The notes beneath the pieces were generated by a model. That model saw only the letters and a program-made list of their open reading frames with translations. It had not been told where the DNA came from and ran no database searches. 58,814 bases of DNA from a virus. Its lineage: Duplodnaviria; Caudoviricetes. Below are positions 11,325 to 58,814 of the stretch, one piece after another. The stretch covers positions 1 through 58,814 of the IMG/VR virus record IMGVR_UViG_3300044679_000035. One strand, written 5' to 3'. Every line of letters begins with the position of its first letter. The first letter of the stretch is position 1. Both the position numbers and the translations under genes were made by a program.

Positions 11325-11361
11325 GCTTTACACGCGAAGGCCGCTTAGCTATTTTCCGAAT

Positions 11362-11433: not shown

Positions 11434-11438
11434 ATTAC

Positions 11439-24575: not shown

Positions 24576-25145
24576 ATGCTCGGCGAAACGCCTCTCACGC
24601 TCGTTAATCGGGCCATCCAACTCTTTGGTGACGACCAGCCGCCGGTCACGGGCACCTACCCGGATTTCGACAGCAGCCCGGCGGGCGTTGCCGCTGCGCA
24701 ACTCTATTTGCCCTGCGTGCAGACCGTGGCGAAGCGGTGGGGCTGGGATTACGCCCGCAGCGTCGTTGCCCTCGTCCTGACCGGCAACACGGCCCCCTAC
24801 GGCATCGCCTACGAATATGCCTACCCCACGAACGGCATCGAAATCGGCGACCTTTTCCCTGCCGCGCCGGACCCCAATAATCCGCTGCCGGTGAATCACA
24901 CGGTCGGCAACGTGATGGTCGCGGGGGTCCCGACCAAGGTGATCTGGACCAATCTGCAGAACGCGAACGCATCCATGACCGCGCAGCCGCCGCCCGCGCT
25001 GTGGGATGCAGACTTTGCCGAATCAGTGGTACGGTTGCTGGCATCGGAGATGGCTATGGCGATCGCAGGGCGTCCGCAGACCGGTTCGCAGCTCATCGGA
25101 GAAGCCGACAGCTTTGCCACGGCGGCGGAGGGCAGACCTGGATGA
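24576..25145 (+). CDS. tail adaptor / tubular protein A paralog 1
   Basis: 'LVNRAIQLFG...WGWDYAR...YEYAYP...WDADFAESVVRLLASEMA'. Confidence 0.75.
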   Translation: MLGETPLTLVNRAIQLFGDDQPPVTGTYPDFDSSPAGVAAAQLYLPCVQTVAKRWGWDYARSVVALVLTGNTAPYGIAYEYAYPTNGIEIGDLFPAAPDPNNPLPVNHTVGNVMVAGVPTKVIWTNLQNANASMTAQPPPALWDADFAESVVRLLASEMAMAIAGRPQTGSQLIGEADSFATAAEGRPG

Positions 25146-25147
25146 GC
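25113..25147 (+). repeat. 35-bp direct repeat copy 1 (copy 2 at 25657-25691)
   Basis: TTTGCCACGGCGGCGGAGGGCAG(A/G)CC(T/G)GGATGAGC, 33/35 identical. Confidence 0.9.
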
Positions 25148-25648
25148 GCGGCATCTGGCGACCTTTTCATGGGCCGCGCGGCCATCGTCTCTGGTGACGG
25201 CAAATACCGCTACCTTCTGCATCGTGTATGGGACGCCGGCAAGCCGCGCGCGCTATTCGTCATGCTCAATCCGTCCACAGCGGACGCCGAGATTGATGAT
25301 CCGACGATTCGGTCCTGCATTCGGCTATCGAAATCTTGGGGTTACGGCAGTTTCGAGGTCGTGAATCTCTATGCCTTTCGCGCGACAGACCCGCGCGCCC
25401 TTGCGCGGGAACCGTTTCCGGTGGGGCCAGACAACAGTGGGGCGCAGGATGCCGCCATCGAGCGCTGCGATGTTGTTATTTGCGCATGGGGCGCGCATGA
25501 AATAGACACGGCGTTGGCGCGCGACCTCTACGACCGCGCCACTCTCCACCACCCCGTTTGTTATTGTCTCGGAACAACCAAATCTGGCGCCCCAAAGCAT
25601 CCGCTCTATATTGCGACAGGGGCTCCATTGGTGGAGTATCGGGCATGA
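25142..25648 (+). CDS. DUF1643-family protein
   Basis: 'YRYLL.R.W...FVMLNPSTAD...DDPTIR.C...VVNLYAFRATDP...AWG...G.PKHPLY'. Confidence 0.85.
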   Translation: MSAASGDLFMGRAAIVSGDGKYRYLLHRVWDAGKPRALFVMLNPSTADAEIDDPTIRSCIRLSKSWGYGSFEVVNLYAFRATDPRALAREPFPVGPDNSGAQDAAIERCDVVICAWGAHEIDTALARDLYDRATLHHPVCYCLGTTKSGAPKHPLYIATGAPLVEYRA

Positions 25649-25689
25649 CCAGCGTTTTTGCCACGGCGGCGGAGGGCAGGCCGGGATGA
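25645..25689 (+). CDS. 14-aa chimeric linker ORF MTSV-FATAAEGRPG
   Basis: First 4 codons match adaptor paralog 2, last 10 match the end of paralog 1; ATGA overlaps at both ends. Confidence 0.6.
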   Translation: MTSVFATAAEGRPG

Positions 25690-26441
25690 GCAATCTTCGC
25701 CTCGTGCACGGCGACTGCCGGCGCGCCATGCGCGGGCGCAAGTACGATCTGATCATTGCCGATCCGCCCTATGCCGTGACATCGCTGCGATGGGACAAAT
25801 CTGTCGATGGCTGGCTGGAAATCGCCGCCGATACCTTGCGGCCAAGCGGCTCGCTGTGGCTGTTCGGCTCCATGCGCTCCCTGATGGCGTCAGCCGTCGA
25901 GGTCGCAAATGCCGGGCTGCGCTACGCCCAAGATATCGTTTGGGAAAAGCACAACGGAAGCGCATTTCACGCGGACAGGTTCAAGCGCGTTCACGAACAT
26001 GTCGTACAGTTTTATCGCGCGGACTCACCGTGGGCTGGCGTTTGGAATGAGGTTCAGACCACGCCGGACGCAATGGCGCGCATCGTCAAACGGCGGAAGC
26101 GACAACCTTCGCACCTTGGCGAGATCAACGAGAATGGCTCGGGCTACGAGTCGATCGACGGTGGTCCGCGCATCATGCGGTCGGTTATCTATGTGCGGTC
26201 GTGCCACGGCCACGCAATCCATCCCACGGAGAAGCCTGTCGATCTTCTCGAAATCTTGATCCGGACATCGTGTCCGCCGGACGGTCTCGTCGGGGACTTC
26301 TTCGCGGGCTCCGCCGCGACAGCAGAAGCCTGCAGTCGCGCAGGGCGGCATTATCTCGGAGCCGAAATTGACGCGGACTACCATGGCGCCGCGATGGAGA
26401 GATTACGTTCGTCGCTATTTACCGGAGGCGCGGTGGCATGA
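25686..26441 (+). CDS. beta-class N6A/N4C DNA methyltransferase
   Basis: Motif IV 'ADPPY', 'HPTEKP', motif I 'DFFAGS'. Confidence 0.9.
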   Translation: MSNLRLVHGDCRRAMRGRKYDLIIADPPYAVTSLRWDKSVDGWLEIAADTLRPSGSLWLFGSMRSLMASAVEVANAGLRYAQDIVWEKHNGSAFHADRFKRVHEHVVQFYRADSPWAGVWNEVQTTPDAMARIVKRRKRQPSHLGEINENGSGYESIDGGPRIMRSVIYVRSCHGHAIHPTEKPVDLLEILIRTSCPPDGLVGDFFAGSAATAEACSRAGRHYLGAEIDADYHGAAMERLRSSLFTGGAVA

Positions 26442-27007
26442 CCAGCGTTCTTCAGAGCCCGGAGGACATCTGCAACGCTGCCCTGGTCCGTCTCGGCTAC
26501 AAGAAAACCATCGGCAATATCTACGAAGGTTCGATGGCCTCGCGGATATTTCTGCGCATCTACGGCCAGACCCGCGACGCCCAGCTGCGCGCCAGCGATT
26601 GGGGCTTCGCGGAAGGCATCGCGGCAGGTGTGGTGGCGGGGATCGCACCGTTCCCGTGGCTGTACCAGTATGCCTATCCCGGCGACTGCCTGAAGGTCCG
26701 CGACATCTTCAATCAGCAGTCCTATGCCGGGGATCAGAACAATCCGACGCCGAACGACTGGCGCACCGGCAACGCGCTTATCAACAACGTCAGTCAGGAA
26801 GTTGTCTGGGCCAATATCGTCAATGCCACGCTGGTCTACACGCGGCAGGTCACATCGCCCGCAGCATGGACAAGCGATTTCGCCGAAGGTCTCATCGCCG
26901 CACTTGCCCGGCGCGCGCTTCCTGCTTTTCAGGAGGCGCAACTGTTGCCACAAGCAGCAAAAGACGAAGAGACCATGATCCAGATCGCCGATGCGACGCA
27001 GGGGTAA
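26438..27007 (+). CDS. tail adaptor / tubular protein A paralog 2
   Basis: 'PEDICNAALVRLGYK..IGNIYEGS...WGFAE...YQYAYPGDCLKVR...VYT.QVT.P..W...F.E'. Confidence 0.8.
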   Translation: MTSVLQSPEDICNAALVRLGYKKTIGNIYEGSMASRIFLRIYGQTRDAQLRASDWGFAEGIAAGVVAGIAPFPWLYQYAYPGDCLKVRDIFNQQSYAGDQNNPTPNDWRTGNALINNVSQEVVWANIVNATLVYTRQVTSPAAWTSDFAEGLIAALARRALPAFQEAQLLPQAAKDEETMIQIADATQG

Positions 27008-27010
27008 TTC

Positions 27011-27640
27011 GTGGCACCCCTTCAAACACCGGAGCAACTCTGCAACGCCGCTCTCGCGCGCATCGGCTACAAGGAGCGCATCGGGAACCTGTACGAGGGC
27101 TCGATGGCGTCCAAGGTCGCGCTGCAACTCTATGCGGAGACGCGCGACGAAAAGCTGGCATCGTTCGAGTGGGGATTTGCAGAACGTAATGCCCAACTCG
27201 CATTGCTGAAATCGGCTCCGGTCGGCGGTTACATTCCACCTGCGGTCTGGAACCCGGCACAGAACCCGCCGCTGGGATGGAGTTACGAATTTGCCTATCC
27301 GGGCGACTGTCTCAAGGTGCGCTCGCTGCGGGTGCAGCTATTCTTCACGCCAGACTACGATCCGAAACCCGTCGAGTTCCGCATCGTGCAGGACAACACG
27401 CTGGCGACACCCGCAAAGGTCATCCTCTGCAACATCAATCCGGCATTCGTGGTCTACACCGCGCAGGTCACAAATCCGCTGGCGTGGGAGCCGGGATTCG
27501 TCGAAACACTGATCGACGCGCTCTCCAAAACCTTCGCACCCGCGCTCGCGAGAGTCGATCAGGCCGGATTCGAGGCTGAGAAAGCCGGGGCCGCGATGGA
27601 AGGCGCAGAAGCCGGACAGGCGGAAGCGAGGCTGGGATGA
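27011..27640 (+). CDS. tail adaptor / tubular protein A paralog 3
   Basis: 'PEQLCNAALARIGYK..IGNLYEGS...WGFAE...YEFAYPGDCLKVR...VYTAQVTNP..W'. Confidence 0.8.
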   Translation: MAPLQTPEQLCNAALARIGYKERIGNLYEGSMASKVALQLYAETRDEKLASFEWGFAERNAQLALLKSAPVGGYIPPAVWNPAQNPPLGWSYEFAYPGDCLKVRSLRVQLFFTPDYDPKPVEFRIVQDNTLATPAKVILCNINPAFVVYTAQVTNPLAWEPGFVETLIDALSKTFAPALARVDQAGFEAEKAGAAMEGAEAGQAEARLG

Positions 27641-28545
27641 CGAAGCCGCTTGCTATTGACCTCTGCTGCGGCCTTTTTGGCTGGTCATCTGGCCTGGTCG
27701 CGGAAGGCTGGGAGGTAATTGGGGTTGACCTTGAAGACATGCACGCGAAATTTGGTATCCCGCGACCGCCGGAATACCGGTTGATTATCCAGGATATTCT
27801 CACGCTGCGCGGCTCGCAATTCAGGAACGCCGACCTGATCGTCGCATCACCGCCCTGTCAAAAATATTCGTGGATGGCGATGCCGTGGAAGCGCGCGAAG
27901 GCCGCAGCGGCGGCAATCCGTGCCGACGAAACAGGACAGATGCTGGCCGACCTGAACCGGCTCTTCGACGCCTGCTTCCGCATCCAAGCCGAAGCGTCGC
28001 TTGCCGCCGGTCGCCATATCCCCATGATTGTCGAGAATGTCAGAGGTGCGCAGCCGTGGGTCGGACGGGCTCGACATAACTTCGGATCGTTCTATTTGTG
28101 GGGCGATGTGCCAGCCCTCATGCCGAGAGCGGAGAGGGCGCAGAAGTTCAATCCTGACGGCACGGCTCACGGTCCCGGGTCGTGGTTTGCGATTGCCGAT
28201 AGCAAAAATCGCGGCGCGAACGGTCAGAAGAATCCAGGGTTTCGGTTCGACGGCAGCGGGCGCAGTTTCCAAACCGAAAGCGTTGCGCGCCATTGCGGGA
28301 CGAAAGTTCCGACGCAAAGTGCCGGGCGCAGTCCTGCGCCCGGCACTGGCGAGCGGTTCACGTCTCGGGACTGTGGCACGAAAAACGGGAACGATTGGTT
28401 TGGGGCGGGCGAGGATTGCAGCTTGCAGCGCCGTCAAGGATCGAAGTCAATTGGTCGAAAAGCGGCCAGCGCCATGATCGCGAAAATCCCGGAGCCATTG
28501 TCTCGTTACATCGCAACTACGTTCAAGCCGCGCGAGGCTGCATGA
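27637..28545 (+). CDS. C5-cytosine DNA methyltransferase-like protein (divergent)
   Basis: 'IDLCCGLFGW' (motif I-like), 'ASPPCQ' (IV), 'IVENV' (VI). Confidence 0.75.
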   Translation: MTKPLAIDLCCGLFGWSSGLVAEGWEVIGVDLEDMHAKFGIPRPPEYRLIIQDILTLRGSQFRNADLIVASPPCQKYSWMAMPWKRAKAAAAAIRADETGQMLADLNRLFDACFRIQAEASLAAGRHIPMIVENVRGAQPWVGRARHNFGSFYLWGDVPALMPRAERAQKFNPDGTAHGPGSWFAIADSKNRGANGQKNPGFRFDGSGRSFQTESVARHCGTKVPTQSAGRSPAPGTGERFTSRDCGTKNGNDWFGAGEDCSLQRRQGSKSIGRKAASAMIAKIPEPLSRYIATTFKPREAA

Positions 28546-42400: not shown

Positions 42401-44262
42401 GGCTGGACACGCCGGCGAAGGTGTCCAAGTACCTGCGCGACCAGGATACGCCCGGTCTCGGCGAGATGGGGCTCGAGCTTTTCATCAACAATCTGATCTC
42501 GGGGCCGATCACCCACGCGACCTATGCCGTCGGCAACACGATGCTGGCGCTATGGAAGGCTGTACCGGAAACGGCCGCAGAAGCCCTGATTGGCATGGGG
42601 CGCGAGGCATTGGGCGCGCCCCCGGGCCAGCGCGCCTACATGGGCGAGGTCGGCGCGCAGCTCTACGCGATGTTCGGCAAGGGCCAGCGTGACGGCTTCC
42701 GTGCGGCGTGGGACGCCTTGAAGTCTGGGCAGACCACGGCACTCCCCGGCGAAGTCTTGGACGCCTCGAATGATCTCTTTTCGACGACGACGACGCGACC
42801 GACGACACCGTTCACATCATCGAAGGCAATCCCGAACTTTGAAATCGGCGGCGTTCCGGTGCCGGTGGGCTCCATCGTCCGGGCGCCTGGCGAGCGCATG
42901 GTGGCACCGATCCATTCCTATTATCGCACCGTCGGCTACGTGCAGGCCGTGGCACGGGAAGCCTACCGCCAGGCCATGAATGAGGGGCTAACCGGTGACG
43001 CCTTCTCTGCTCGCGTCGCCGATCTCTCCGCCAGCCCGTCATCGGCCACGATGGACCTTGCCCGCCACGAAGCGACCGACCAGACCATGATGGGACAGGG
43101 CGGCGAATTGATGCGGCGGCTTTCCTGGCTGCTCAGTTATCCTGTTCCGTTTCCGCGCCCGATCGGGCCGACCAGACTGCTCCGCTTCATCGACCCCTTC
43201 GTGCAGGTCTTCGGTTCGATCATGCGGGAGACCGTCATCAAGCGCGGGCTGCCGGGATTGCTCAGCGACGACATGCGGGGCCGTAACGGTCCGCTGGCGC
43301 AGAACAGGGCCGGCGCCCGCGTCGCGGTGGGCGTCAGTCTTTCCGTCGTGGGCGCCGGGCTTGCCGCCGAAGGCGTCCTGAACTCATCGGCACCGTCCGA
43401 TCCTCGGGCACGCGGCCTCTGGACGCTGGTCAACGGAATGCCGCACAGCATCCGCGTCGGCGATCTCACCTTCGATCTGAGCCGCCTTGGCGTGCTCGGC
43501 ATGCATCTCGGCATCGCGGCCGATCTCTACAATGTCGCTGATACCGCGGCGCACGGCGACATGGTCCATGCCGGAAGCCTTTTGGTTCATTCCATCGCGC
43601 AGAATTTCCTCGACGAAGGCTTCGCGGAAGGCATCTCGGAAATGCTCAAGGCTGTCGATGATAACGACCGCTACGGGCAGGCATGGGTCCGCAATTTCGT
43701 CAAATCCTTCGTGCCCTATGCGGTCGGGCTGTCCCAAAGCGCGCGCATGATCGATCCCTATGCGCGGGAGGCCCGCACCGTCACGGACAGCATCCTGGCC
43801 GGAATTCCGTTCGCGTCGGAATCCCTTGAGCCCCGCCGCGACATCTGGGGCGAGCCGATCCAGAACCGGAACTGGGCGCTGGTCTATTCGCAGCGCATCC
43901 AAGATGACCCCGTAAACCGCGAACTTTTGGGACTCGGCGTCTTCCCGGCGCAGCCACAGCGCAAAATTCGCGGTGTCGCGATCACCGATGCCCAATATGA
44001 CGATCTTTCCCGCATCGGCGGCCGCTATGCCAAGGCACTTCTGGACAACGATGTCCGGACGCCGGGATGGAGCTCAATCCCGGCAGAGCACCGCATCGAG
44101 ATCATCAAAAAGGACATCGAAACCGCCCGGGAATCGGCACGCACCACGATCATGATGAGCCATTACGCAACGGCGCCGCCGGGGCAGAGCATCATTGATC
44201 GCGCGTACGCGCTCAAACTTCATCCTCTACAGAATGCGGTTGGTCCCGGCACCGCTCCATGA
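36451..44262 (+). CDS. giant polyvalent internal virion protein (2603 aa)
   Basis: ParB-like 'WIADGHQR', polyvalent-protein motifs 'PGGANYRELL', 'EIQSDWHQKGR', zincin-like 'FLHETAH...HELWARGFE'; helical C-terminal region. Confidence 0.8.
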   Translation: MSATGKLPTADEFFGSGPSGTLPTVDQFFAPPKPTLAQGAMSALAVAGSEMEGLPHAEASADMDDFIKNTPVGHVLDAFGQGFRQQWGTDAGTFPEEVSDWLKKAGLFHDYEKRRTGLINSFNEGIIRATYGLADMANRAIGGVVGGAEQAAYQTGIETGQPQLGHEAAAGIEYATQRGDILARSIPETTYLGGQIAKARGLAVIGEGEGGFFGTKEPTPETAAARAEAVKAETEHAAAQAKETWQPEPGAQGQAETPAQRAPQAPPEPTLDDIARQIAPQAFQQRDALAVREQTYRRWLRELGDARAQLPEVQELQGRIGTILDKVNGVEDRLTGKAAQRLSDARDRLDEIFRTDTGDMAHVRANLMEATHGLWDVAPRIRAAYEEAQRRLPPAPENVSVEQNVARAETSPEAQPATPAQPPEQAAAGQNVQPVLAAGPESGAAVLPGLPRGGAAGLPLPPAAAEGMAAAQGEGTGAPIGAEKLGDLGGAQPPAVPAQPQPSIATDVARKLVFAGRPQEEADAAGALLQAHYEARAARFNGALGTADQIYAREGPAIRRGRGLGPVPAPQPGQTAAAPAPKPADPTKAPSELESLDPAQIKVDPGRFQFKADTGERGISERLQGVEQWDPRLAGTALVWRDATGQDWIADGHQRLGLAQRLTEAGQPGIRLNAFVLNAAEGVSDADARGIAAAKNIAEGTGTAIDAAKVIREAKAKGIELPPMPPRSALVRDGRALARLSPEAFGMAVNDVVPTNQAAIVGRLVDDPLAQTEAMRVLAKTKPENARQAEMIVRDMLASGVEEMTKQGGLFGEEHFAASTVMERAKIADEAMRQLKRDKATFKVLVDEAARIEGHGQNVLDVEANKGRLTTDEQAAQFLTQLATRKGEVSDGLTAIAKRLKSGDVTAAAGAREFLGIVRTAAEKGLAAGPDLGRAESGPERDIELFQSGLKQTELPGLADETAAERKARLGRQLIEESRQLPRAVSRKAQKPLEEGLFAPPPERTLFQGGGEQPTFYSALTRSVEGLKLEKAPADQWLNTIRNIPGVKKEELEWSGVEDWLKEQKGPVTRAAVTDYLHENEVHVQEVQKGGPHGATDDEQGALEVAMTNAVNKGIVDNGASAKFYDDIVRGDSQAIGDAEAIGIPDSVLAPFRDRERAPTKFGPGSGPGAPLPGGANYRELLLTLPENPEVRRAGDAAADSAKRMREKYGERWAMTAPADEVLAHGGLEERRQALSKQNEFRASHWAEPNVLAHVRFDDRTGPNGEKVLHVAEIQSDWHQKGRKQGYEQAAGPEYYLRMPDGEIGQDFASREEGEAFIRDHPGAGILDRQSPNTTGVPNAPFKTSWPELAMKRMIRYAAENGYDRISWDTGDTNAERYDLSKQINEIHYLKRPDGRYDIVPIKNGHVFEGLRHDAVPEEKLPDILGKDVAKRIADGAGDDLARGYKKLTGDNLKVGGEGMRAFYDKHLPIIANKLGKKFGAKVEESRLGMPDDKTVQNEGTAATRAALGIDTVHSLPITDTMRDSVMEGQPLFQGKRGAIAFRDARATIRFMRDADSSTFLHETAHQWLEELIRDSRDRRAPPDVGADVGTVRDWYNNVKRNTEPEWKADGAVPDEAHELWARGFERYYREGAAPSQRLATIFAKFKAWLTKIYKTAEELHAPINDEIRAVYSRLLSTPEERAAIAPERPAPPTLADMHEEDAALTPAQHAGTMADVIRSEIDNRAKDVAPEVHNELPGKAETGRIQRENPPLPGGGDEAGPIPGENAGAGGTGAEPKGGNPIAAEGARPRGGAGGAGTKPPSGPNAAFERPESDLIDKAGNIRVDNLNTTADVDRLIHDVADENGGFAGVRIPMSDSQALDLADAMGLRPEDLNGTQLANFTRAHAFAVRKLFVSVATETNRAAAKAAAGGDADVLAYAAARSRMRMAQEHLSALTYAAGSVLRGFQKLPGTAEAKGLAQMMGDLSEQRSLFQLKQEAKRVARLDTPAKVSKYLRDQDTPGLGEMGLELFINNLISGPITHATYAVGNTMLALWKAVPETAAEALIGMGREALGAPPGQRAYMGEVGAQLYAMFGKGQRDGFRAAWDALKSGQTTALPGEVLDASNDLFSTTTTRPTTPFTSSKAIPNFEIGGVPVPVGSIVRAPGERMVAPIHSYYRTVGYVQAVAREAYRQAMNEGLTGDAFSARVADLSASPSSATMDLARHEATDQTMMGQGGELMRRLSWLLSYPVPFPRPIGPTRLLRFIDPFVQVFGSIMRETVIKRGLPGLLSDDMRGRNGPLAQNRAGARVAVGVSLSVVGAGLAAEGVLNSSAPSDPRARGLWTLVNGMPHSIRVGDLTFDLSRLGVLGMHLGIAADLYNVADTAAHGDMVHAGSLLVHSIAQNFLDEGFAEGISEMLKAVDDNDRYGQAWVRNFVKSFVPYAVGLSQSARMIDPYAREARTVTDSILAGIPFASESLEPRRDIWGEPIQNRNWALVYSQRIQDDPVNRELLGLGVFPAQPQRKIRGVAITDAQYDDLSRIGGRYAKALLDNDVRTPGWSSIPAEHRIEIIKKDIETARESARTTIMMSHYATAPPGQSIIDRAYALKLHPLQNAVGPGTAP

Positions 44263-44439: not shown

Positions 44440-45536
44440 GATTGAGCCGCGCTGCAGCCCTGCTCGCCGTCATCGGCATCATCATCGGTACCGGCACTCC
44501 CTGCGGGGCGCAGGTTCCGGGCGGCGGACTTTACCCGTTCGGGGCCATCACGCCGGGCGACTGCGCGGAATGGTATGGGCCTTGGCAGTTGGAGGACGCT
44601 GGCGGGGCCTGCGGCGGCAGCGGAGGTGGAAATGCCAATTTTGGCACGGCAACCGGCAATACCGCCAACGATGTCGTCACGATGTCGAACACGACAGTCG
44701 GCGTGAAGGACTCCGGCATCGCGGGCGCATCGCTTGGAACCTTTGCGACTGCAACCGGCAATACCGCCAACGATGCTGTCTGCATGTCGAATACGACGGT
44801 TGGCGTGAAGGATTGCGGTTCGGCGCTTGGAACCGCAGCTGCACAGAGTATAGGAACTTCTGGCAGTACGCTTTGCCTGCTGAACGCGAATTGCACGTTT
44901 GGCGGTACGGATAATTTCACAGGTACATTCGAGATAGGCGGCACTGCGCAGACCTTCCCCGGCAGCGGGCTCATCGCAGGCACCACGGATACGCAAACGC
45001 TCACAAATAAATCCATTGCCGGAAGTGAGATCAATTCCGGCGTGGTAGGGCAATCATACGGAGGGGCCGGGACTATAACAGGCGCCTTGAAAGGCAACGG
45101 CTCCGGCACTGTATCGCAGGCCGCGTGCGCCGATCTTTCAAACGCCGCGTCCGGATGCTCATCGACGAATGGGCCAATCGCCGCCGTCGAGTACGTCATC
45201 GATGGTGGTGGCTCTGCGATCACCACGGGGGTCAAGGGCTTCATTGAAGTTCCGTTTGCCTGCACGATCAACCGCGTGACGTTGATCGCTGACCAGACAG
45301 GTTCCATCGTGGTTGACATCTGGTCGAAGGCATATGCCTCGAACTCGCCGCCGACCGTGACAAACACGATCACGGCCTCCGATCTCCCCACGCTTTCCAG
45401 CGCGCAGACCTATCAGGATTCGACACTCACGGGCTGGACCACATCCATCGCGGCGGGGAACATCATCGGGTACAACGTCAACAGCGCCACGACCGTTACC
45501 CGCGTGACGGTTTCAATGAAATGCACCAAATCATGA
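44436..45536 (+). CDS. signal-peptide-bearing tail fibre-like protein
   Basis: Hydrophobic N-terminus ...CGA|Q; 'TDTQTLTNKSI', 'GGAG...TGALKGNG' fibre motifs; C-terminal 'IDGGGSAITTG.KG' domain. Confidence 0.7.
   Translation: MRLSRAAALLAVIGIIIGTGTPCGAQVPGGGLYPFGAITPGDCAEWYGPWQLEDAGGACGGSGGGNANFGTATGNTANDVVTMSNTTVGVKDSGIAGASLGTFATATGNTANDAVCMSNTTVGVKDCGSALGTAAAQSIGTSGSTLCLLNANCTFGGTDNFTGTFEIGGTAQTFPGSGLIAGTTDTQTLTNKSIAGSEINSGVVGQSYGGAGTITGALKGNGSGTVSQAACADLSNAASGCSSTNGPIAAVEYVIDGGGSAITTGVKGFIEVPFACTINRVTLIADQTGSIVVDIWSKAYASNSPPTVTNTITASDLPTLSSAQTYQDSTLTGWTTSIAAGNIIGYNVNSATTVTRVTVSMKCTKS
44640..44819 (+). repeat. intragenic duplication, 102-bp period
   Basis: F(G/A)TATGNTAND(V/A)V(T/C)MSNTTVGVKD(S/C)G twice. 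Confidence 0.8.
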
Positions 45537-51449: not shown

Positions 51450-51682
51450 TCCGCACCCCCCGCTATTTCGGCTTCGCGCGCCAAGACAGCCAGCGACCGC
51501 GCGATGCTCATTGTTATCTCCGACTCGAGTTCGGCTTCGTTGATGGTCGCATCGCTGCCAGCGTGAAGGCATGATCGCGGAATCCATACGTCAGTGCTGG
51601 CGGTTTCGTCGGTCGCGACGCAAATAGCCTTCTTGGTGCGCCGCACAAGGATGACCGACACGGTGACATATTCGTCGCTCAT
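51446..51682 (-). CDS. hypothetical protein
   Basis: 'TKKAICV...VWIPRSCL' small beta-barrel-like phage protein. Confidence 0.6.
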   Translation of the reverse strand: MSDEYVTVSVILVRRTKKAICVATDETASTDVWIPRSCLHAGSDATINEAELESEITMSIARSLAVLAREAEIAGGAE

Positions 51683-52677
51683 GACGTGGTTGCCGTTTCG
51701 GCTTGCTCGGCAAGCGGCTTGATGGTTTTGTCCTTGAACTGCCTCAAAGCGTGCTGAAGACGGGGCGACGTCTTGCCAAGACGCTCCCACAGTGCCGAAA
51801 CAGGTGCCAGCCCACCCTCGGCCGCCTCCAGAAGTTCGCGCTTCCAGCGCTCAATCTCGGCGTCTGGCTTGGGTCCGATGATTTCCTGCATCGGCGGCGT
51901 CTCGCTGGCCTGCGCGGGCGGGAAGGGGGACTCGGTGCGGCCGTCGACAATGAGCTGCCCATCCTCGCTAATGGCGCTCGACAGGCCCTGCTCCTCCCAA
52001 GCCTCGTCGATACGCGCGGCGAGATGGTAATCGCGGGTCAGGGCGTTCATGGGCATGGAGCGCCGCAGTCGGCGGCGGCATGTCTTGGCGTACATCGCCG
52101 GCCGGCCGACCTTGGGATCGGCCCAGGGGGAGAATCCGTCGCCCTTGTTCGCGGCCTGCGATTTTTCGCGCACGGCTTCCAGATCCGAAAGGCGTAAGAC
52201 CTCGATCAGGGCGGGCAGCGTTTTCGACTCCGCCACCGCCCAGGCGCAAATGATGCGCCCCTCTTCCGCCATGTTGATCTTGTGTCGCAGATAAGCCCCA
52301 GTCCCCTTCATATACTCGAAATCGTCTTTTTCCCTGACGACATCGGCGTTGATCGAATAGCCTGACCGCGCGCCAAGTGTGTTGAGTCCACAATAACCCG
52401 TCTGGAATTGCGCAATGAGGCCTAGCCTCTTGTCATTGTAGGGCACGAGGTAGCCTTGCCCCGTCACCCCATCGACCTCCAAGCCGAGGAAAGCCGCAGT
52501 CATGGCCGAACTGAACAGACTTTGCCGCGAGCACTCCAGCAGCTTTGGCGTCTTCTCGCAGGACACCATGATCGTGCGCATCAGCCGTTCCGCCGGCATC
52601 CGGTCCGCAAGGGCCTGCTGCAGCTTCGGCAGTAGCGGACGGAGCTGCGTTTCGAGGAGGACGAGATCGTTAGACAT
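51679..52677 (-). CDS. recT: RecT-family single-strand annealing protein
   Basis: 'PKLLECSRQSL...AAFLGLE..G..GQGYLVPY...AQFQTGY.GL', 'MYAKT.RRRL'. Confidence 0.88.
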   Translation of the reverse strand: MSNDLVLLETQLRPLLPKLQQALADRMPAERLMRTIMVSCEKTPKLLECSRQSLFSSAMTAAFLGLEVDGVTGQGYLVPYNDKRLGLIAQFQTGYCGLNTLGARSGYSINADVVREKDDFEYMKGTGAYLRHKINMAEEGRIICAWAVAESKTLPALIEVLRLSDLEAVREKSQAANKGDGFSPWADPKVGRPAMYAKTCRRRLRRSMPMNALTRDYHLAARIDEAWEEQGLSSAISEDGQLIVDGRTESPFPPAQASETPPMQEIIGPKPDAEIERWKRELLEAAEGGLAPVSALWERLGKTSPRLQHALRQFKDKTIKPLAEQAETATTS

Positions 52678-53965
52678 CGAGCCCTTCTTGCGCTTCCTGC
52701 GCTTTGACGTGGCCATCTTCCATGACGATTCCGACAGTGCCGGAACCGTTAACCTCTTCCGTCCATATCTGTAGATTGTTTTCGTCGGCGAATGTTTCGA
52801 GACGCTTCATTGCATCTTCGTCCAGCAATGACGCGTCCCGGATACGGATGACGCGAAGCTTCGGATTGAGGGCCGCGGCGATCGCTGTGGCAACCATCAA
52901 CTGCTCGGCATCGCTGGCTTGGTCCAGCGGCAGACCTTTGTAGGTGACCTGCTCGTCGGCGAAGGCCAATCCCTCGATCGGCATCTTGGCTTCCGCGACC
53001 ATCTTCTCCTTGCTGGCATCGAGGGCTTCGATTGCCTTCGTGTGGGTGTCGCGGGCCGCGGTCAGTTCGGAGACTTTGAGTGTTGCCGCAGCTTTGCGCG
53101 CCCGCAGTTCGATACCCTTGGCGATGGCATTGGCCGCGTTGAGTTCGGCGCGGATCGCGCCGGCATCTTGGAGTGCACCAGCTGCCGCAAAAAACTTTTC
53201 CGCTTCCTCCATCGCAAGCTCTGCGGCCACTCGATGCGCCTGAGCTTTCTTCGCGCGCTCGCGGGCGGCTTCGATTTCTGCGATTGCCGCTTCCTCGCGC
53301 CGTTTCGCGTCTTCCCATGTCAACCGCGACATAGACACGGTGCCCTCTTTGCGCCGGATCGCGGCATTGTGGGTGTCAACGCCGACCAGCCGCTCTGTGA
53401 TCGCCGCGGTATCCGGTGCCGCATCTGGCAATCCTTCCGGCACGCTGATCGCAGCCGCCGCACCCTCCGCGGTCTTCAAATCGCGACCAACCTGTGTACG
53501 GTTGTAGTACTCGATCTCGCGCTTCTTCTCGATGTCGGACAGGTCGATACCGACCAGCTTGCGCAGCGTCTCGAACTGCTTCTTTGCCGGATCGCGCATG
53601 AAGCCGAGCGGATCGAAGCTGCGGGCCGCGTACAAATCATCCAGAAATTTCTGCGGCGACGGATAGCGCAGACCCTCGGGGCTCCTGATTTCCAGCGTCG
53701 AACCCTTCGGCGTGAATTTGCGCTCGACGACAAGCTCGACTTCCTTCCCGCCCAGTTCGACCTTGATATTTGCCTTTTCCTGGCCCTTGCGGATCGGTTG
53801 CGTCTGGATGCCTTCGGTGCCAGCCAAACCCCAGAAGATCGAGTCTAAAACACTGGTCTTCCCCTGCCCGTTTTTCCCGGTGATGCGGACCAGATTGCCC
53901 TTCGGCGTGATCTCGACGGCGGTGATTTTCTTGATGTTCTCGACTACGAGGCGGATGATTTTCAT
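52670..53965 (-). CDS. SMC/Rad50-like AAA ATPase
   Basis: 'LVVENIKKI', Walker A 'GKNGQGKTS', long coiled coil, C-terminal 'IRDASLLD'. Confidence 0.85.
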   Translation of the reverse strand: MKIIRLVVENIKKITAVEITPKGNLVRITGKNGQGKTSVLDSIFWGLAGTEGIQTQPIRKGQEKANIKVELGGKEVELVVERKFTPKGSTLEIRSPEGLRYPSPQKFLDDLYAARSFDPLGFMRDPAKKQFETLRKLVGIDLSDIEKKREIEYYNRTQVGRDLKTAEGAAAAISVPEGLPDAAPDTAAITERLVGVDTHNAAIRRKEGTVSMSRLTWEDAKRREEAAIAEIEAARERAKKAQAHRVAAELAMEEAEKFFAAAGALQDAGAIRAELNAANAIAKGIELRARKAAATLKVSELTAARDTHTKAIEALDASKEKMVAEAKMPIEGLAFADEQVTYKGLPLDQASDAEQLMVATAIAAALNPKLRVIRIRDASLLDEDAMKRLETFADENNLQIWTEEVNGSGTVGIVMEDGHVKAQEAQEGLDV

Positions 53966-53979
53966 GTCGCGTTCCTTTG
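53952..53979 (+). repeat. 28-bp direct repeat (ATPase RBS and start; second copy 54212-54239)
   Basis: CGGATGATTTTCATGTCGCGTTCCTTTG identical in both copies. Confidence 0.9.
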
Positions 53980-53980
53980 A

Positions 53981-54133
53981 TTATTTGCGTTTCTTCCATA
54001 ATTCTGGCGTGGCGGCCCACGCGAGCATGGCACCCCCCGTTACGGCTTCGGCCAGTGAAAGCGGAATCTGCGCGCGGTCAATCCACGCCCAGATAAAATC
54101 CCCGATACCAACGGCGAAGATTAGCGCCCTCAT
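53981..54133 (-). CDS. 50-aa membrane peptide
   Basis: MRALIFAVGIGDFIWAWIDRAQIPLSLAEAVTGGAMLAWAATPELWKKRK, read from sequence. Confidence 0.55.
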   Translation of the reverse strand: MRALIFAVGIGDFIWAWIDRAQIPLSLAEAVTGGAMLAWAATPELWKKRK

Positions 54134-54225
54134 TTTGCCTCCGGTGCATAGACGCTCACGGTCTTGAACGTGTAGTCGGCTTCACGCTGTAGGCGCCGCG
54201 CGACTGTTAGTCGGATGATTTTCAT
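54130..54225 (-). CDS. 31-aa chimeric linker ORF MKIIRL...TFKTVSVYAPEAK
   Basis: Begins as the ATPase N-terminus, ends as the YqaJ-like C-terminus. Confidence 0.55.
   Translation of the reverse strand: MKIIRLTVARRLQREADYTFKTVSVYAPEAK
54132..54206 (+). repeat. copy of the YqaJ-like gene 3' end (55471-55543) with a 2-bp insertion
   Basis: 73 bp identical apart from AACGTGTAGTC vs AACGTAGTC. Confidence 0.9.
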
Positions 54226-54239
54226 GTCGCGTTCCTTTG

Positions 54240-55466
54240 TTAGCCTTTCACATTGACGACTTGGCGCAAGCGGCGGACAATTTCGACCAGATCGGATTGC
54301 GCGGTCATGACGGCACCGATCGGCTTGTAAGCCGCCGGGCTTTCGTCGATCACGTCGGCGTCAAGCCTGGCCTCAATGCCCCTCATCGCTTCCGCGTGCT
54401 GCTCCATCGAGATGGTCTTGCGTGCCGTGCCGCGTGACATCGCGCGGCCGGCACCATGCGAGCATGACTGAAATGATTGCGGGTTGCCCTTGCCGCGCAC
54501 GATGAAGCTGCCGGTTCCCATTGAGCCCGGAACGATACCAAGATCGCCGTCGCGCGCCCGGACCGCCCCCTTACGCGTGACGATGACGTTCTGCCCGAAA
54601 TGATGCTCGCGCGCGACGTAGTTGTGGTGACAATTCACGGCTTCCGCAGTGATCGTGATTTCGCGGCCGAGCGACGCGGACACAGCTTCGCGAACCGCTT
54701 CCATCATCAGACACCGGTTCGCCAGTGCGTATTCCTGAGCCCAATCGACGGCCTCGACGTAATCCTTGAAATCGTCCGTTCCATCCGGAAGGTAAGCAAG
54801 GTCCTGGTCTGGCAGATCGATAAAATATCGCCGCATGTGCTCCTTCGCGCGCTCGATGAAATATTGCCCGATCTGGTTACCGACGCCGCGCGAGCCGGAA
54901 TGCAGCATGAGCCAAACCGCGTCGCTTTCATCAAGGCAAACCTCGATGAAATGATTGCCGGTACCAAGCGTCCCGAGATGGCGCTGATACCGCGTCGTCC
55001 ACCGCGCTAGGCGGGGATGCTTTGCCCCGATGGCCGCAAAACCTTCATTCATCGGCCCGTTGTTCTTCGCGAAGGCTTCGACGCGCGGCGAAAGGTCGTG
55101 CCACGATCCGCGGTCATTATCGCCGCCGTTGTCCGTGCGGCCGTGCGGGACAGCCGCCTCGATTGCAAGGCGGACAGCGTGCAAATTGTCGGGCAAGTCG
55201 CCAGCGACCAAGTTCGTTTGCGCCGCGACCATACCGCATCCAATGTCAACGCCAACCGCCGCTGGCACGATTGCGCCCTTCGTGGCGATCACGCTCCCGA
55301 CAGTGGCACCCATACCCCAGTGACAATCCGGCATCGCAGCGACGTGCTTGAAAATGAACGGCAGTCGCGATACATTTTCAAGCTGCGCCATGGCCTGCGT
55401 TTCTACCGAAACGCCATCCGTCCACATCTTGATCGGCGCGCCGCTTTCCGTCTGGTGAACCTGCAT
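54240..55466 (-). CDS. rtcB: RtcB RNA ligase
   Basis: 'MPDCH', 'VGVDIGCG', 'GTLGTGNHFIE', 'LHSGSRG', 'HHNY', 'RKGA', 'PGSMG', 'SCSHGAGR', 'DESPAAYK'. Confidence 0.95.
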   Translation of the reverse strand: MQVHQTESGAPIKMWTDGVSVETQAMAQLENVSRLPFIFKHVAAMPDCHWGMGATVGSVIATKGAIVPAAVGVDIGCGMVAAQTNLVAGDLPDNLHAVRLAIEAAVPHGRTDNGGDNDRGSWHDLSPRVEAFAKNNGPMNEGFAAIGAKHPRLARWTTRYQRHLGTLGTGNHFIEVCLDESDAVWLMLHSGSRGVGNQIGQYFIERAKEHMRRYFIDLPDQDLAYLPDGTDDFKDYVEAVDWAQEYALANRCLMMEAVREAVSASLGREITITAEAVNCHHNYVAREHHFGQNVIVTRKGAVRARDGDLGIVPGSMGTGSFIVRGKGNPQSFQSCSHGAGRAMSRGTARKTISMEQHAEAMRGIEARLDADVIDESPAAYKPIGAVMTAQSDLVEIVRRLRQVVNVKG

Positions 55467-55468
55467 CT

Positions 55469-56422
55469 CTATTTTGCCTCCGGTGCATAGACGCTCACGG
55501 TCTTGAACGTAGTCGGCTTCACGCTGTAGGCGCCGCGCGACTGCTGCTTGATCTTTACCTTGACGCCGTGGGGCAGGAGGATTTCGTCGTTGTCTTCCGC
55601 CAGCGCGAGGAACCGGGCTTTGAGTTCCTTCTCCGCCCGCTCATGCCCGAGCCGTTCCGCGCTGTGATAGTTCAGCATCCGAGCGTCTTCCATCAGCGCA
55701 ATCCGGGTCTTGTCGCCCGCGTCCTCAATCGCCAGCCCGTCGCCTTCGTGAGCCCCGACCAGCGTGGACAGGTCCAGCTTCTTGCCTTCGACGGTCGTGA
55801 ACAGCTTGGTCAGCAGCGGGACTTCGATGGGGGCGCCGAACGGGGCCGGCTCGCGTCCGGCATCGACATCGGCCAGCATCTCGCGGGCCTTCGTTTCGAG
55901 CAGTTCCCACAGGTCCGGCATCGGTTTTCGCTGGAAGTAGAACATCTCGCCGGCGCACCAGACCCCGATGACGCCCCACTTATAGGGAACGCCGCCTTCG
56001 CCGACAAACATTTGCGTTTGAAGTTGAATTTCGATCTCGCGCGGGACCGTCTTGCCGCCCCCCCACTTCTCCATCCAGATATTGTAGGCGAAACAACATT
56101 TCGCATCGAGCGCGCCGGGGCCGCGATCAGGACAGATGATCGTGGCATCCCGCGTGCAGCCAAGCGGCCCACGGCTCACATAAGGTTCGTTTCCTTCCGC
56201 ATCCACGTTAGGGTGGACCTCGAAATGTAGCTCCCTAGATGCTCTTTTCAGGACGTAGGGCTGTAGATATTTACCTGCTGCCATCCTGTTGTCCTCAGGG
56301 TTCGGGATTTCCTCGCCGTACTTCAGCCAGCGGTAAAGCGTCCAACGCGTCATATACGGGGACGCATCGACGAGCGCGCTGGCTTGCGTGGCGGAGATGG
56401 TCTTGCGGGTCGCGTCAGGCAT
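55469..56422 (-). CDS. YqaJ-like (lambda exonuclease-type) nuclease
   Basis: 'ISATQASAL...PYMT...LY', 'LGCTRDA', 'LDAKC', 'IQLQTQM'; near recT. Confidence 0.75.
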   Translation of the reverse strand: MPDATRKTISATQASALVDASPYMTRWTLYRWLKYGEEIPNPEDNRMAAGKYLQPYVLKRASRELHFEVHPNVDAEGNEPYVSRGPLGCTRDATIICPDRGPGALDAKCCFAYNIWMEKWGGGKTVPREIEIQLQTQMFVGEGGVPYKWGVIGVWCAGEMFYFQRKPMPDLWELLETKAREMLADVDAGREPAPFGAPIEVPLLTKLFTTVEGKKLDLSTLVGAHEGDGLAIEDAGDKTRIALMEDARMLNYHSAERLGHERAEKELKARFLALAEDNDEILLPHGVKVKIKQQSRGAYSVKPTTFKTVSVYAPEAK

Positions 56423-56633
56423 CGACGGGCACAATCTCAAAATCGTTGTCGATGATCTGCTCAATGGGCTGGCCCGTCGCATCGCGCATCGCCAGCGTCA
56501 TCGGAGCAATCCCGCCGCCGAGCATGGCCTTAATGATCGCGGTCGCGGCTTCGGCGTTCTGCGGGCCGCCAAAGTGCATACGCCGCCGCACTCGCATCGT
56601 CACGTCGAAAACCCAAACCTTTGGTTCAGTCAC
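56415..56633 (-). CDS. hypothetical protein
   Basis: GTG start with GGGAGG RBS. Confidence 0.5.
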   Translation of the reverse strand: MTEPKVWVFDVTMRVRRRMHFGGPQNAEAATAIIKAMLGGGIAPMTLAMRDATGQPIEQIIDNDFEIVPVDA

Positions 56634-56901
56634 GGCCAACCTCCCTTTTTTTGATGATTGCCCACAGTTTTGCAGCGTGGGCGTCCGGGCAGCAGATAAA
56701 GAATTGCCACGGGTTAACGTTGAACCGCTCCCACAGCAGTTGTAGCTCGCGCGGCGTCCGATCACGCGCGTCCGGGATCGTCGGCTCGAACTCCCATCTG
56801 TCGATGTTGCACAGGATGCGCAGTCGCGCGTGAAATCGGCGCATCTCGGGATCGTCAGCGGTCATAGCAGCTTGTTCTCCAGCGATTGCAGTGTTGCTCA
56901 T
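56626..56901 (-). CDS. hypothetical protein
   Basis: GAGG RBS; tight packing. Confidence 0.55.
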   Translation of the reverse strand: MSNTAIAGEQAAMTADDPEMRRFHARLRILCNIDRWEFEPTIPDARDRTPRELQLLWERFNVNPWQFFICCPDAHAAKLWAIIKKREVGRD

Positions 56902-57077
56902 TTCAGATACCTCAGACCTTCGTAGGTTATGCGCCACGATCCGTTCGACAGGATGCACCAGCGGCGACGCTCACATGCCCGGACGGTCGAATTGCCGTAA
57001 CCGGCGAAGGCGGGGCGCACGCCACCGAGCTTCTGCAGCTTCAGGAGAAACCCGTACTGTGGTCGCGTCGGTGTCAT
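56898..57077 (-). CDS. small hypothetical protein
   Basis: ATGA overlaps; ends 'WRITYEGLRYLK'. Confidence 0.5.
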   Translation of the reverse strand: MTPTRPQYGFLLKLQKLGGVRPAFAGYGNSTVRACERRRWCILSNGSWRITYEGLRYLK

Positions 57078-57184
57078 TTGCACAGCAGCCTCCACGCGGC
57101 CCAGTAGCAGAGTGCGCTGCAGCCCAAGATGATGACGGCGCAAAGCCAGACCGGGAGCGGAGAATTTTGGCGGTCGCCGTTCAT
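57074..57184 (-). CDS. single-TM peptide
   Basis: 'VWLCAVIILGCSALCYWAAW'. Confidence 0.45.
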   Translation of the reverse strand: MNGDRQNSPLPVWLCAVIILGCSALCYWAAWRLLCK

Positions 57185-57762
57185 GTGCGTGCCTCCGCGG
57201 AAGGGTTGCCGGGACTGGCGGCCAGCACCCTTCGCGTTCGCGTGCAGATTCGAAGCCCATGAAGCAGGCATGTCACGACGCCATTTTCGTCAGGCGATAT
57301 GTGGTGCAGCGGCGCGCCACGATGCGGACAAATAAGGCCGCGCGGGCCTTCCGCAACCGGCCGACCGGCAAAATGCTTTTGCACTACGCCAAACCGCTCC
57401 GGGGATCGGACTTCCTCCGGCATCTGGATAGCCCTTTTGCACTTGAACCTTTTCAAGGTTGTCTCAGCAGGAACCGGCAAGCCGCGCTGGAAAAGAGGCC
57501 ACGCGAACATCTGCGCATCCGGGGTTAGTAGTGAGTACAGGGTCTCGCGCGCCTTTTTATACCCGTTCGTCGGCGTGAATCTCCAATCGTGATGATAGTG
57601 GATGTCTGGGAAACGGAGCAGTTCAGCGTCTTCGTGGGCCGAGCCAAGAACCGGCCACCACGCGACTTTCTCAAAGAACCGATACCAGATCGCCGGGACC
57701 ATGTAGTATTGCCCGACGATCGGATCGCCGATGGTGTCGTCTAGTATCCTGGTCCGGCTCAT
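57181..57762 (-). CDS. protein with C-terminal Rieske-type [2Fe-2S] motif
   Basis: 'CPHRGAPL...VVTCLLHG' = CxH...CxxH; N-terminal 'H.D...F...HYHHDWRF'. Confidence 0.7.
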   Translation of the reverse strand: MSRTRILDDTIGDPIVGQYYMVPAIWYRFFEKVAWWPVLGSAHEDAELLRFPDIHYHHDWRFTPTNGYKKARETLYSLLTPDAQMFAWPLFQRGLPVPAETTLKRFKCKRAIQMPEEVRSPERFGVVQKHFAGRPVAEGPRGLICPHRGAPLHHISPDENGVVTCLLHGLRICTRTRRVLAASPGNPSAEART

Positions 57763-58232: not shown

Positions 58233-58814
58233 TTATGACGTTTTCCCGGTCACGGCTACCGCACCAACAGGCACTGTTCCATCTGCTTCATGTTGCGCCA
58301 TTGTCTCGATGTACGCGAGCGCCCACGCATCTGGAATTGCGCCGAAATTCTGGAGCGGCCAACCCGGATGCGCGGCGTCATGGATCAGCGCGGCAGCGCC
58401 AGCAAATCCAACTTTCTTTCTGAGATTCCATCCAGCTTCGCCGGCCAGACTCACCAAATGTCCAGCACAGCACATTGGTGTGTTGCAAAGGCTCGGTTCT
58501 GGCGTTGGAGAATTTTCCGGACCCCATGTTGATTGTTTGAAGGTTCGCTTACCCGCGTTTATTTCGGCGAGCATCCTAGAATACGGCTTATCGAGAACGG
58601 GAATTTCGCCGAGCCCGGCCCTGAGGTCGCTCGGGGTCCAGCCGGCCGCCATGAGGTCGCTCGGGGTCCAGCCGGCCGCCCTGAGGGCGCTCGGGGTCCA
58701 GCCGGCCGCCATGAGGTCGCTCGGGGTCCAGCCGGCCGCCATGAGGTCGCTCGGGGTCCAGCCGGCCGCCATGAGGGCGCTCGGGGTCCAGCCGGCCGCC
58801 ATGAGGTCGCTCGG
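58233..58814 (-). CDS. decapeptide-repeat protein (5' truncated by window end)
   Basis: (L[M/R]AAGWTPS[D/A])n followed by 'CNTPMCCAGHLVSLAGEAG' domain. Confidence 0.7.
   Translation of the reverse strand, partial: PSDLMAAGWTPSALMAAGWTPSDLMAAGWTPSDLMAAGWTPSALRAAGWTPSDLMAAGWTPSDLRAGLGEIPVLDKPYSRMLAEINAGKRTFKQSTWGPENSPTPEPSLCNTPMCCAGHLVSLAGEAGWNLRKKVGFAGAAALIHDAAHPGWPLQNFGAIPDAWALAYIETMAQHEADGTVPVGAVAVTGKTS
58621..58814. repeat. 30-bp tandem repeat, 6 full units plus a partial
   Basis: (A/C)TGAGG(T/G)CGCTCGGGGTCCAGCCGGCCGCC head to tail, no spacers. Confidence 0.95.

Follow-up and report, generated by a model that had tools for sequence, protein, structure and literature searches.

The window analysed here, the whole IMG/VR record IMGVR_UViG_3300044679_000035, is a linear stretch of 58,814 nt from an uncultured Caudoviricetes phage from peat (CheckV completeness, 91%; GC content, 61.6%). 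At two places in this genome, two unrelated genes are stacked between the same pair of flanking genes and are separated by a scar, a small chimeric open reading frame (ORF) in which the start of the downstream flanking gene is joined to a copy of the end of the upstream one. One of the loci lies in the recombination module around the RNA ligase gene rtcB (locus 1), and the other in the tail module (locus 2). The probable origin of each locus is a heteroallelic duplication of one inter-gene slot, of which the novel joint survives. The anatomy looks like a trace of the way in which phages gain genes and is best read as a variant of the classical duplication joint, not as a new system or molecular machine.

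Such a joint would require two versions of one slot, A-X-B and A-Y-B, in related phages or in a phage and a prophage, where A and B stand for the flanking genes and X and Y for the accessory genes (cassettes). One illegitimate, microhomology-guided join would have fused the two versions, with the breakpoint lying slightly inside B in one of them and shortly before A ends in the other, either by a direct non-allelic crossover between the genomes or through an excised small circle, consisting of the A-end, the cassette and the B-start, which would later have been re-inserted by homology. The product would be A-X-(B-start/A-end)-Y-B with both promoterless cassettes retained, presumably because both are useful. 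Joining was probably the work of the exonuclease/RecT pair that the phage itself encodes, or of host end-joining. The circle route would in addition account for the perfect 28-nt (or 73-nt) identity with abrupt divergence after it, and one genome alone cannot separate this route from the crossover. RNA repair for rtcB and DNA modification for a methylase are typical accessory roles.

Anatomy of the Two Loci

In locus 1, the minus strand carries in this order a YqaJ-type exonuclease gene (gene A), rtcB (cassette X), a scar ORF of 31 codons, an ORFan of 50 codons (cassette Y, named mem50 below) and an SMC-like ATPase gene (gene B). A stacked architecture around rtcB had been proposed in a preliminary description made from the letters of the window alone, and the sequence comparison bears it out to the base (Table 1). 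The exonuclease, whose longest ORF begins at 56482, ends in TFKTVSVYAPEAK before its stop codon; its resident gene end contains a GGAGG that serves the next gene, and rtcB begins two bases past the exonuclease end at 55469. Directly after the TAA of rtcB sits the 28-nt copy of the ATPase start, and from there the scar reads CGA CTA ACA against CGC CTC GTA in the resident ATPase gene (6 diverged nt), a divergence that the preliminary description leaves unmentioned. The copy of the exonuclease end starts at CAGTCG, with the joint to the ATPase-type start at 54206/54207, and the AC inserted in this copy appears as GT on the plus strand at 54170-54173. The product of the scar ORF is MKIIRLTVARRLQREADYTFKTVSVYAPEAK, and its TGA overlaps the ATG of mem50, whose TAA in turn ends one base ahead of the ribosome-binding site (RBS) of the resident ATPase gene. 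Neither repeat of locus 1 is due to chance: in 100 dinucleotide shuffles of the window, neither the 28-mer (allowing 2 mismatches) nor a 40-mer of the YqaJ end (allowing 3) ever matched twice.

The architecture of locus 1 had also been said to match that of positions 25113-26449. Indeed, the same design is found there in the tail module on the plus strand, where a DUF1643 gene and a DNA methyltransferase gene are stacked between two paralogous tail protein genes. The end of tail gene A (25113-25147) is copied at 25657-25691 with 33 of 35 bases identical, and the start of tail gene B (26435-26449) is copied at 25642-25656 with all 15 bases identical. Both changes in the copied A-end are synonymous and at third positions (AGA to AGG and CCT to CCG). 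The scar ORF, whose product is MTSVFATAAEGRPG, is in frame and has ATGA overlaps at both ends.

The topology is common to the two loci: each joint leads from downstream sequence into upstream sequence without a change of orientation, and the arrangement is flanked by direct repeats, 28 nt and 73/75 nt long at locus 1 and 15 nt and 35 nt long at locus 2. At the joint of locus 1, AGTCG is common to the resident ATPase start and the YqaJ end, and CAGTCG to the scar and the YqaJ end; at the joint of locus 2, the microhomology is 2-3 T's. Tandem arrays aside, a scan of the whole window found no other dispersed direct repeats that are near-exact and separated by less than 6 kb.

Table 1. Positions of the genes, scars and copied gene ends of the two stacked loci in the window (aa, amino acids).
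Feature	Position	Strand	Remark
Locus 1, gene A, YqaJ-type exonuclease, 317 aa from MPDATRK	55469..56422	-	Pfam PF09588, E 6.3e-08
Locus 1, resident 73-nt YqaJ gene end, source of the copied A-end	55471..55543	-	repeat families D1, D3
Locus 1, cassette X, rtcB RNA ligase, 408 aa	54240..55466	-	Pfam PF01139, E 3.8e-129, full-length match
Locus 1, exact 28-nt copy of ATPase RBS (AAGGA) and first 14 coding nt	54212..54239	-	identical to 53952..53979
Locus 1, scar mini-ORF, 31 codons, ATPase-type start, 6 diverged nt and YqaJ end	54130..54225	-	
Locus 1, 75-nt copy of YqaJ end	54132..54206	-	73/73 against 55471..55543, plus one AC insertion
Locus 1, cassette Y, 50-aa hydrophobic ORFan (mem50)	53981..54133	-	G+C at third codon positions (GC3) 0.66
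Locus 1, resident ATPase RBS and start, 28 nt	53952..53979	-	
Locus 1, gene B, SMC/SbcC-like ATPase, 431 aa	52670..53965	-	Pfam AAA_23, E 8.5e-12; phrog_1499, full length, E 1.4e-87
RecT single-strand annealing protein	51679..52716	-	Pfam PF03837, E 1.1e-24
Locus 2, gene A, tail protein paralogue A	24576..25145	+	phrog_394; alignment
Locus 2, cassette X, DUF1643 protein	25142..25648	+	Pfam PF07799, E 1.4e-42
Locus 2, scar mini-ORF, 14 codons	25645..25689	+	tail-B start joined to copy of tail-A end
Locus 2, cassette Y, N6/N4 DNA methyltransferase	25686..26441	+	Pfam PF01555, E 1.2e-33
Locus 2, gene B, tail protein paralogue B	26438..27007	+	phrog_394

Some features of the surroundings are added here. 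Next to locus 1, the longest RecT ORF overlaps the end of the ATPase gene by 47 nt (52670-52716); an internal ATG (MSNDL...) would cut this overlap to about 11 nt, so that the true start of RecT is uncertain. Locus 2 lies in a region (24576-28545) that follows a gene for a 1135-aa protein and holds three tandem phrog_394 tail paralogues of 189, 189 and 209 aa; tail paralogue C is followed by a second DNA methyltransferase gene (27637-28545), with an ATGA overlap between them.

The Joint in Metagenome Contigs

An assembly artefact was a concern from the outset, and it was checked with contigs, not raw reads, built per run (k = 31) from the public peat metagenome runs X1 and X2; runs X3 and X4 gave low and patchy cover, and the parts they leave uncovered were kept out of the evidence. 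In two peat runs, 96% of the sampled words of the locus are present. The contigs of X1 and X2 are identical to the window and end inside the repeats (51600-54161, 54177-55500 and 55514-56600), where a true repeat would be expected to break them, and an additional 73-nt contig corresponds to 55471-55543. The contig 54177-55500, at a depth of about 48 in X1 and 16 in X2, runs from rtcB through the ATPase-type start and takes in 30 nt of the copied exonuclease end; it spans the joint, which therefore exists in the reads. The remaining junctions are carried by the contig 51600-54161. As either X1 or X2 may be the source sample of the window, the per-run support is not fully independent.

The AC insertion itself lies in the stretch 54162-54176, which falls between contigs and whose bin depths are the exact sum of those of the two flanking contigs. 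In X1, the depth of the 73-nt contig is 65.9 against about 50 for its flanks, while about 67 is expected if the two copies differ mid-way and about 100 if they are identical; by our arithmetic, which assumes that differing copies share 15 of 43 k-mers, the corresponding expectations in X2 are about 22 and 34, so that the depth of 29.9 found there is ambiguous. The 2-bp insertion is thus supported only indirectly, the depth of the 73-nt contig being the one datum that bears on it. Across the scar, the depths in X2 are 20.7 on the ATPase side (a 40.7-kb contig), 16.3 in rtcB and 14.9 on the exonuclease side, and the 73-nt repeat contig is deeper than expected in this run. These uneven depths may reflect a co-occurring variant with another right-hand side, or noise.

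The window is itself a contig from a metagenome, assemblers tend to err at repeats of 28-75 nt, and the sample behind the assembly may be among the runs compared, all of which would suit an assembler that stitched two strain variants in tandem. However, a graph bubble running from the A-end to X or Y and on to the B-start has no edge from B-start to A-end, the per-run contigs hold the joint and the other junctions at the depths given above, and the depth of the 73-nt contig in X1 fits two partly differing copies, not one. Such stitching is scarcely credible.

Origin of the Scars

Two slot versions are suggested by the interiors of the repeat units. Neither slot holds two related cassettes (rtcB stands with an ORFan at locus 1, DUF1643 with a methylase at locus 2), so that two versions of the slot must be involved if the units were duplicated, hence the term heteroallelic. 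Furthermore, the cassettes meet their flanks at identical bases, which fits alternative occupants of one slot: at locus 1, the TAA of each cassette lies 0-1 nt ahead of CAAAGGAAC, and at locus 2, both cassettes start with ATGAGC and finish with GCATGA. GC3 is 0.65-0.72 in the cassettes and 0.73-0.78 in the core flanks. The scars also differ from the resident sequences in a patterned manner. At locus 1, the 28 identical nt are followed by 11 nt that hold all four changes, two of which are synonymous (CGA/CGC and CTA/CTC); the other 101 nt are unchanged. By our arithmetic, four changes would all land within a given 11-nt stretch out of 112 nt with a chance of about 1e-4, and the chance that both changes of locus 2 fall at third positions is about 0.1. 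The clustered and mostly synonymous differences look like those between diverged, once full-length alleles, not like the decay of an identical duplicate.

Several points weigh against heteroallelic duplication. No parent or relative with a single cassette was found among viral contigs (queries YqaJ, ATPase and tail B), among metagenome or genome contigs, or among cultured phages. The 73/73 identity of the YqaJ ends suits an intragenomic duplication equally well. Instead of stemming from an allele, the 6 diverged nt of locus 1 may be filler at the junction, and the sole counter to this is the retained CT of a Leu codon, a match of about 1 in 16 by our arithmetic. The genome arcs bounded by the two joints show no difference in tetranucleotides or GC, 57 of 59 rotations of the arc partition giving an equal or larger tetranucleotide distance; this comparison is uninformative if the parents were similar, and if there were two parents, they were alike. 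With about 114 nt and about 50 nt of extra DNA, the scars fall well short of the lengths expected from random breakpoints, a shortness that needs added selection or later trimming. Finally, mem50, having no convincing homologue, may be no gene. Its only match among 5.8 billion proteins was itself; a search of 1.84 billion representatives added two weak multi-stretch matches, both in long proteins. Neither Pfam nor PHROG assigned it to a family. It was also considered as a gene remnant, and tblastx and blastn against the retrieved loci and the rest of the window gave nothing meaningful.

Alternatively, the A-end, cassette and B-start may have been duplicated in tandem within one genome, one of the cassettes being swapped later for that of another phage by homologous exchange. 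Phage genetics offers classical cases of tandem duplications with novel joints, and such an origin would agree with the perfect identity of both the YqaJ-end and the ATPase-start copies (28/28 for the latter). However, it needs two events where one suffices, the clustered and partly synonymous differences of the scars are unlike random decay, and no trace of a second rtcB or DUF1643 copy is found; we regard it as unlikely. A dedicated cassette-mobility system inserting at defined sites, such as an integron-like system, a PeSL-like repeat family or a homing endonuclease, is highly improbable, judged by repeats, promoter-like and terminator-like sites and RNA folds. The same architecture occurs twice in one genome, and PeSL repeats flanking ORFans are reported to act in this way in T4-type phages (PMC2839356). 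Yet the two scars share no sequence and consist of locus-specific gene ends, which argues against a common site or dedicated machinery, and the whole-window repeat scan revealed no dispersed repeat family. A consensus scan of 51500-57200 placed both promoter-like sites on the plus strand, their count being at shuffle level, and all three terminator-like sites also on the plus strand, fewer than in shuffles; the coding strand thus has neither kind of site. The scars fold no better than shuffles. A reading of the scars as RNA elements was rejected likewise, as the folds of both scars and of the resident A-ends gave z values of -0.74 to +0.96 against shuffles.

Reading Frame and Translational Coupling

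The preliminary description held that the scar ORF of locus 1 runs out of the YqaJ frame and is returned to it by the 2-bp insertion. This holds: residues 7-18 of the scar lie outside the YqaJ frame, and the AC brings the ORF back into it. With the AC removed, the scar ORF would continue in frame into mem50 as an 80-aa fusion, and with one extra base only, it would stop ahead of the mem50 start. In general, every insertion or deletion whose length is not divisible by three breaks the fusion, and one half of such indels return the ORF to the exonuclease frame. Since a +1 change breaks the fusion too, two escapes were equally available, and the return to the YqaJ frame is one of them. The further claim, that selection acts on the scar to keep translational coupling, is not supported as it was stated, as it leans on a single indel; selection of this kind is plausible but unproven.

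Translation of the scar itself is almost certain from its signals, because the copied A-end brings a Shine-Dalgarno sequence and the stop/start context, and the copied B-start an RBS and an ATG. The GGAGG in the copied exonuclease end is 4 nt before the ATG of mem50; as mem50 thus has an RBS of its own, its initiation need not depend on coupling. Overlaps of 4 nt between stop and start codons stitch these operons together, and they also flank the slot ORFs of four related loci (L004, L029, L039 and L043). A finer comparison is offered by three prophages of one Kaistiaceae metagenome-assembled genome (MAG), whose exonuclease-RecT slots lie at L133:6900-6960, L134:6900-7070 and L135:6900-7220. 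The three prophages are 97-99.6% identical and yet differ in this slot, which contains an ORF of 92 codons in L135, of 43 codons in L134 (a 147-nt in-frame deletion) and of 3 codons in L133 (120 nt shorter; ATG AGC GCA TGA). All three keep ATGA overlaps at both ends, and the indels of 147 and 120 nt are multiples of three.

These observations bear on the idea that the scar mini-ORF is a selected coupling adaptor, in which the AC was fixed for restoring termination at the ATGA overlap. The idea is compatible with slot duplication as an add-on, and we see for it a chance clearly short of even. It would account for the AC being the sole change in 75 nt and the only thing that prevents fusion with mem50, for the in-frame scar of locus 2 with its two ATGA overlaps, for the frame-keeping indels of the Kaistiaceae prophages and for the overlaps around the slot ORFs of the four loci named above. 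The frame is kept in 4 of 4 events, with a probability of about 0.012 at one third each, a figure that is naive, post hoc and drawn from mixed kinds of event. Against the adaptor idea stand the single compensated scar, the +1 change that would have served as well, the GGAGG that may make coupling needless, the uncertain reality of mem50 as an ORFan, and the position of the AC outside contig cover together with the ambiguous depth of the 73-nt contig in X2.

The Slots in Relatives

Both slots are insertion hot spots in relatives, which speaks for slot duplication from two versions. The YqaJ-type exonuclease has 409 homologues, of which the best non-self one is 59% identical. An alignment of 35 exonuclease homologues was used to retrieve 46 viral and 8 MAG loci (54 in total); several of the MAG loci lie within megabase contigs of Alphaproteobacteria and are therefore prophages. 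In relatives, RecT is the usual direct neighbour of the exonuclease, and RecT or the ATPase lies downstream of it in 48 of the 54 loci. From the exonuclease stop to the RecT match, the distance is at most 120 nt in 35 of these 48 loci, 121-300 nt in 6 and above 300 nt in 7, and the larger slots that were inspected (10 of 13) hold unrelated small ORFs. The ATPase is found in 3 of the 54 loci (L003, L039 and L043), rtcB and mem50 in none. Among relatives of the tail module (80 loci), there are usually three or four tandem phrog_394 paralogues tens of bases apart, and at the same positions as in the window some loci (L139, L148, L163 and L174) have gaps of 0.7-2.1 kb. DUF1643 and both methylases are absent from these 80 loci.

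The cassettes themselves were also followed. In 80 viral rtcB loci, neither the exonuclease nor RecT nor the ATPase lies less than 4 kb away. The closest viral rtcB (L050, 85% identical at the amino acid level) stands in a context unrelated to a recombination module. At L050:5190-5330, this gene ends in VNVKG, the stop codon TAA and CAAA, as the window copy does, and it is followed by a GC-rich hairpin that by eye resembles a terminator. Cultured phages gave rtcB matches alone, at 65-72% nucleotide identity. A tail-B homologue is present in 0 of 5 records retrieved through the YqaJ protein. Among metagenome contigs, a degenerate pattern for the A-end peptide had no match and the ATPase query found one locus, at 33% identity; a 30-mer across the AC insertion had no match among viral contigs. 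These searches for relatives may omit the window's own record or very near ones.

Search for Scars in Other Genomes

A scar of this type has a definable signature, namely two pairs of direct repeats, placed so that the first copy of one pair lies directly against the second copy of the other pair. It was searched for in 215 viral or prophage loci (1,973,547 nt), made of a set of 126 loci (1,165,375 nt) and a set of 89 loci (808,172 nt). The scan recovers both loci of the window, and no convincing scar was found in the 215 other loci (1.97 Mb), with the pairs of eight loci left uninspected. At the strict threshold, pairs of 16-25 nt in L026 and L029 belong to these, and L039 and L058 turned out to be tandem arrays. 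At the relaxed threshold (repeats of at least 14 nt), weak pairs of 14-24 nt were found in L017, L033, L040, L068, L076, L084 and L123, as well as in L132, L140, L164-L167, L175, L180 and L193. Those in L017, L033, L040, L068, L084, L123, L140, L164 and L180 lie inside ORFs or protein repeats, and that in L076 is a repeated intergenic region of another topology; the pairs in L132, L165-L167, L175 and L193 are 14-15 nt long and were not inspected singly. Block shuffles gave 0 loci per set, although such shuffles do not preserve coding structure.

The preliminary description had spoken of a recurring mechanism of gene accretion. It recurs in that the joint occurs twice in this genome; the 215 other loci give it no further instance. 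With two scars in the 58.8 kb of this genome and no convincing one in about 2 Mb of other sequence, either the events are rare or the scars are short-lived, and direct repeats of 28-75 nt beside a RecT gene should vanish quickly. It is doubtful, though conceivable, that there is a general, unnamed route, distinct from morons, by which promoterless genes are stacked in coupled operons through non-allelic microhomology joints, the mini-ORFs being kept and repaired by indels to hand on ribosomes. Such a route would possibly be driven by the phage exonuclease/RecT pair, with scars visible briefly before recombination between the repeats erases them. In the literature searched, which left most subscription journals outside, no description of chimeric mini-ORFs made of a start and an end between stacked phage genes was found.

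Comparison with Known Systems

The arrangement had been said to have no known name; a near one exists, the novel joint of a tandem duplication made by illegitimate recombination, which in the present case would be heteroallelic. Classical examples in phages are the tandem duplications of T4 rII and of lambda. As in these, downstream sequence is joined to upstream sequence directly at a few bases, and the extra DNA is bounded by direct repeats; instability is expected. Unlike in these, the repeat units hold unrelated genes, the flanks are trimmed to 15-39 nt and 35-75 nt at the gene edges, and the joint forms a small translatable ORF.

Several other systems resemble the scars in part. In T4-type phages, short repeats that include the Shine-Dalgarno/ATG region flank ORFan cassettes, and cassette mini-circles of about 0.4-1.4 kb are reported (PMC2839356); PeSL mini-circle excision and re-insertion by homology would yield the topology seen here. 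PeSLs are a genome-wide family of promoter and stem-loop motifs, whereas the repeats of the window are unique pieces of neighbouring genes made by the event itself, with neither promoter nor terminator. Accretion of morons in lambdoid phages likewise adds genes between genes that are neighbours in relatives, presumably non-homologously (PMC2839356). Morons bring their own promoter and terminator, whereas the coding strand here has no such site, which argues that the cassettes are not classical morons, and they are embedded in a chain of overlapping stop and start codons.

As for the enzymes, RecET is reported to recombine across 5-13 bp (PMC2327257, citing Shiraishi 2002), and Rad52-like systems (Red-beta/RecT) are reported to join diverged or very short homologies (PMC2327257; PMC3945230; PMC8136500). 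An exonuclease/RecT pair is encoded at locus 1 itself; RecT may have had a part in these joints, and host end-joining would serve as well. In the lpl paralogues of Staphylococcus aureus, a gene end and the next start are reported to travel as a unit (PMC2568036), and locus 2 likewise lies among tandem paralogues. Homologous exchange takes place there in a conserved central region (PMC2568036), whereas the scars of the window join a start to an end, reversing that order, at microhomology. An integron gene cassette would come with an integrase gene and with attI and attC sites at the cassette ends; the cassette ends here are copies of neighbouring gene ends.

Comparisons of phages usually show clean module edges at gene boundaries and leave the events of origin to guesswork. 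In this genome, the joint itself has been preserved, and twice so; it records the microhomology used, the flank carried along and possibly a compensating mutation. If the two-parent origin is true, the window would be a worked example of how genes of the counter-defence type (an RNA ligase and a DNA methylase) pile up promoterless in one slot, and would offer a simple sequence signature by which recent gene gains could be spotted in viral metagenomes. The signature also makes it possible to test the rate of in-frame joints against one in three.

Other Features of the Window

A single tRNA-Met (CAT) gene is encoded at 11361-11434, in a phage that also bears the tRNA/RNA ligase gene rtcB. Within the structural region, an ORF of 2606 codons extends over 36442-44262, and the ORF next to it has a 77-nt direct repeat (44640-44818) with a spacing of 102 nt and 83% identity. 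At 58233-58814, an ORF that runs off the end of the record contains at least 6 tandem 10-residue repeats, AAGWTPS[AD]L[MR], with a period of 30 nt.

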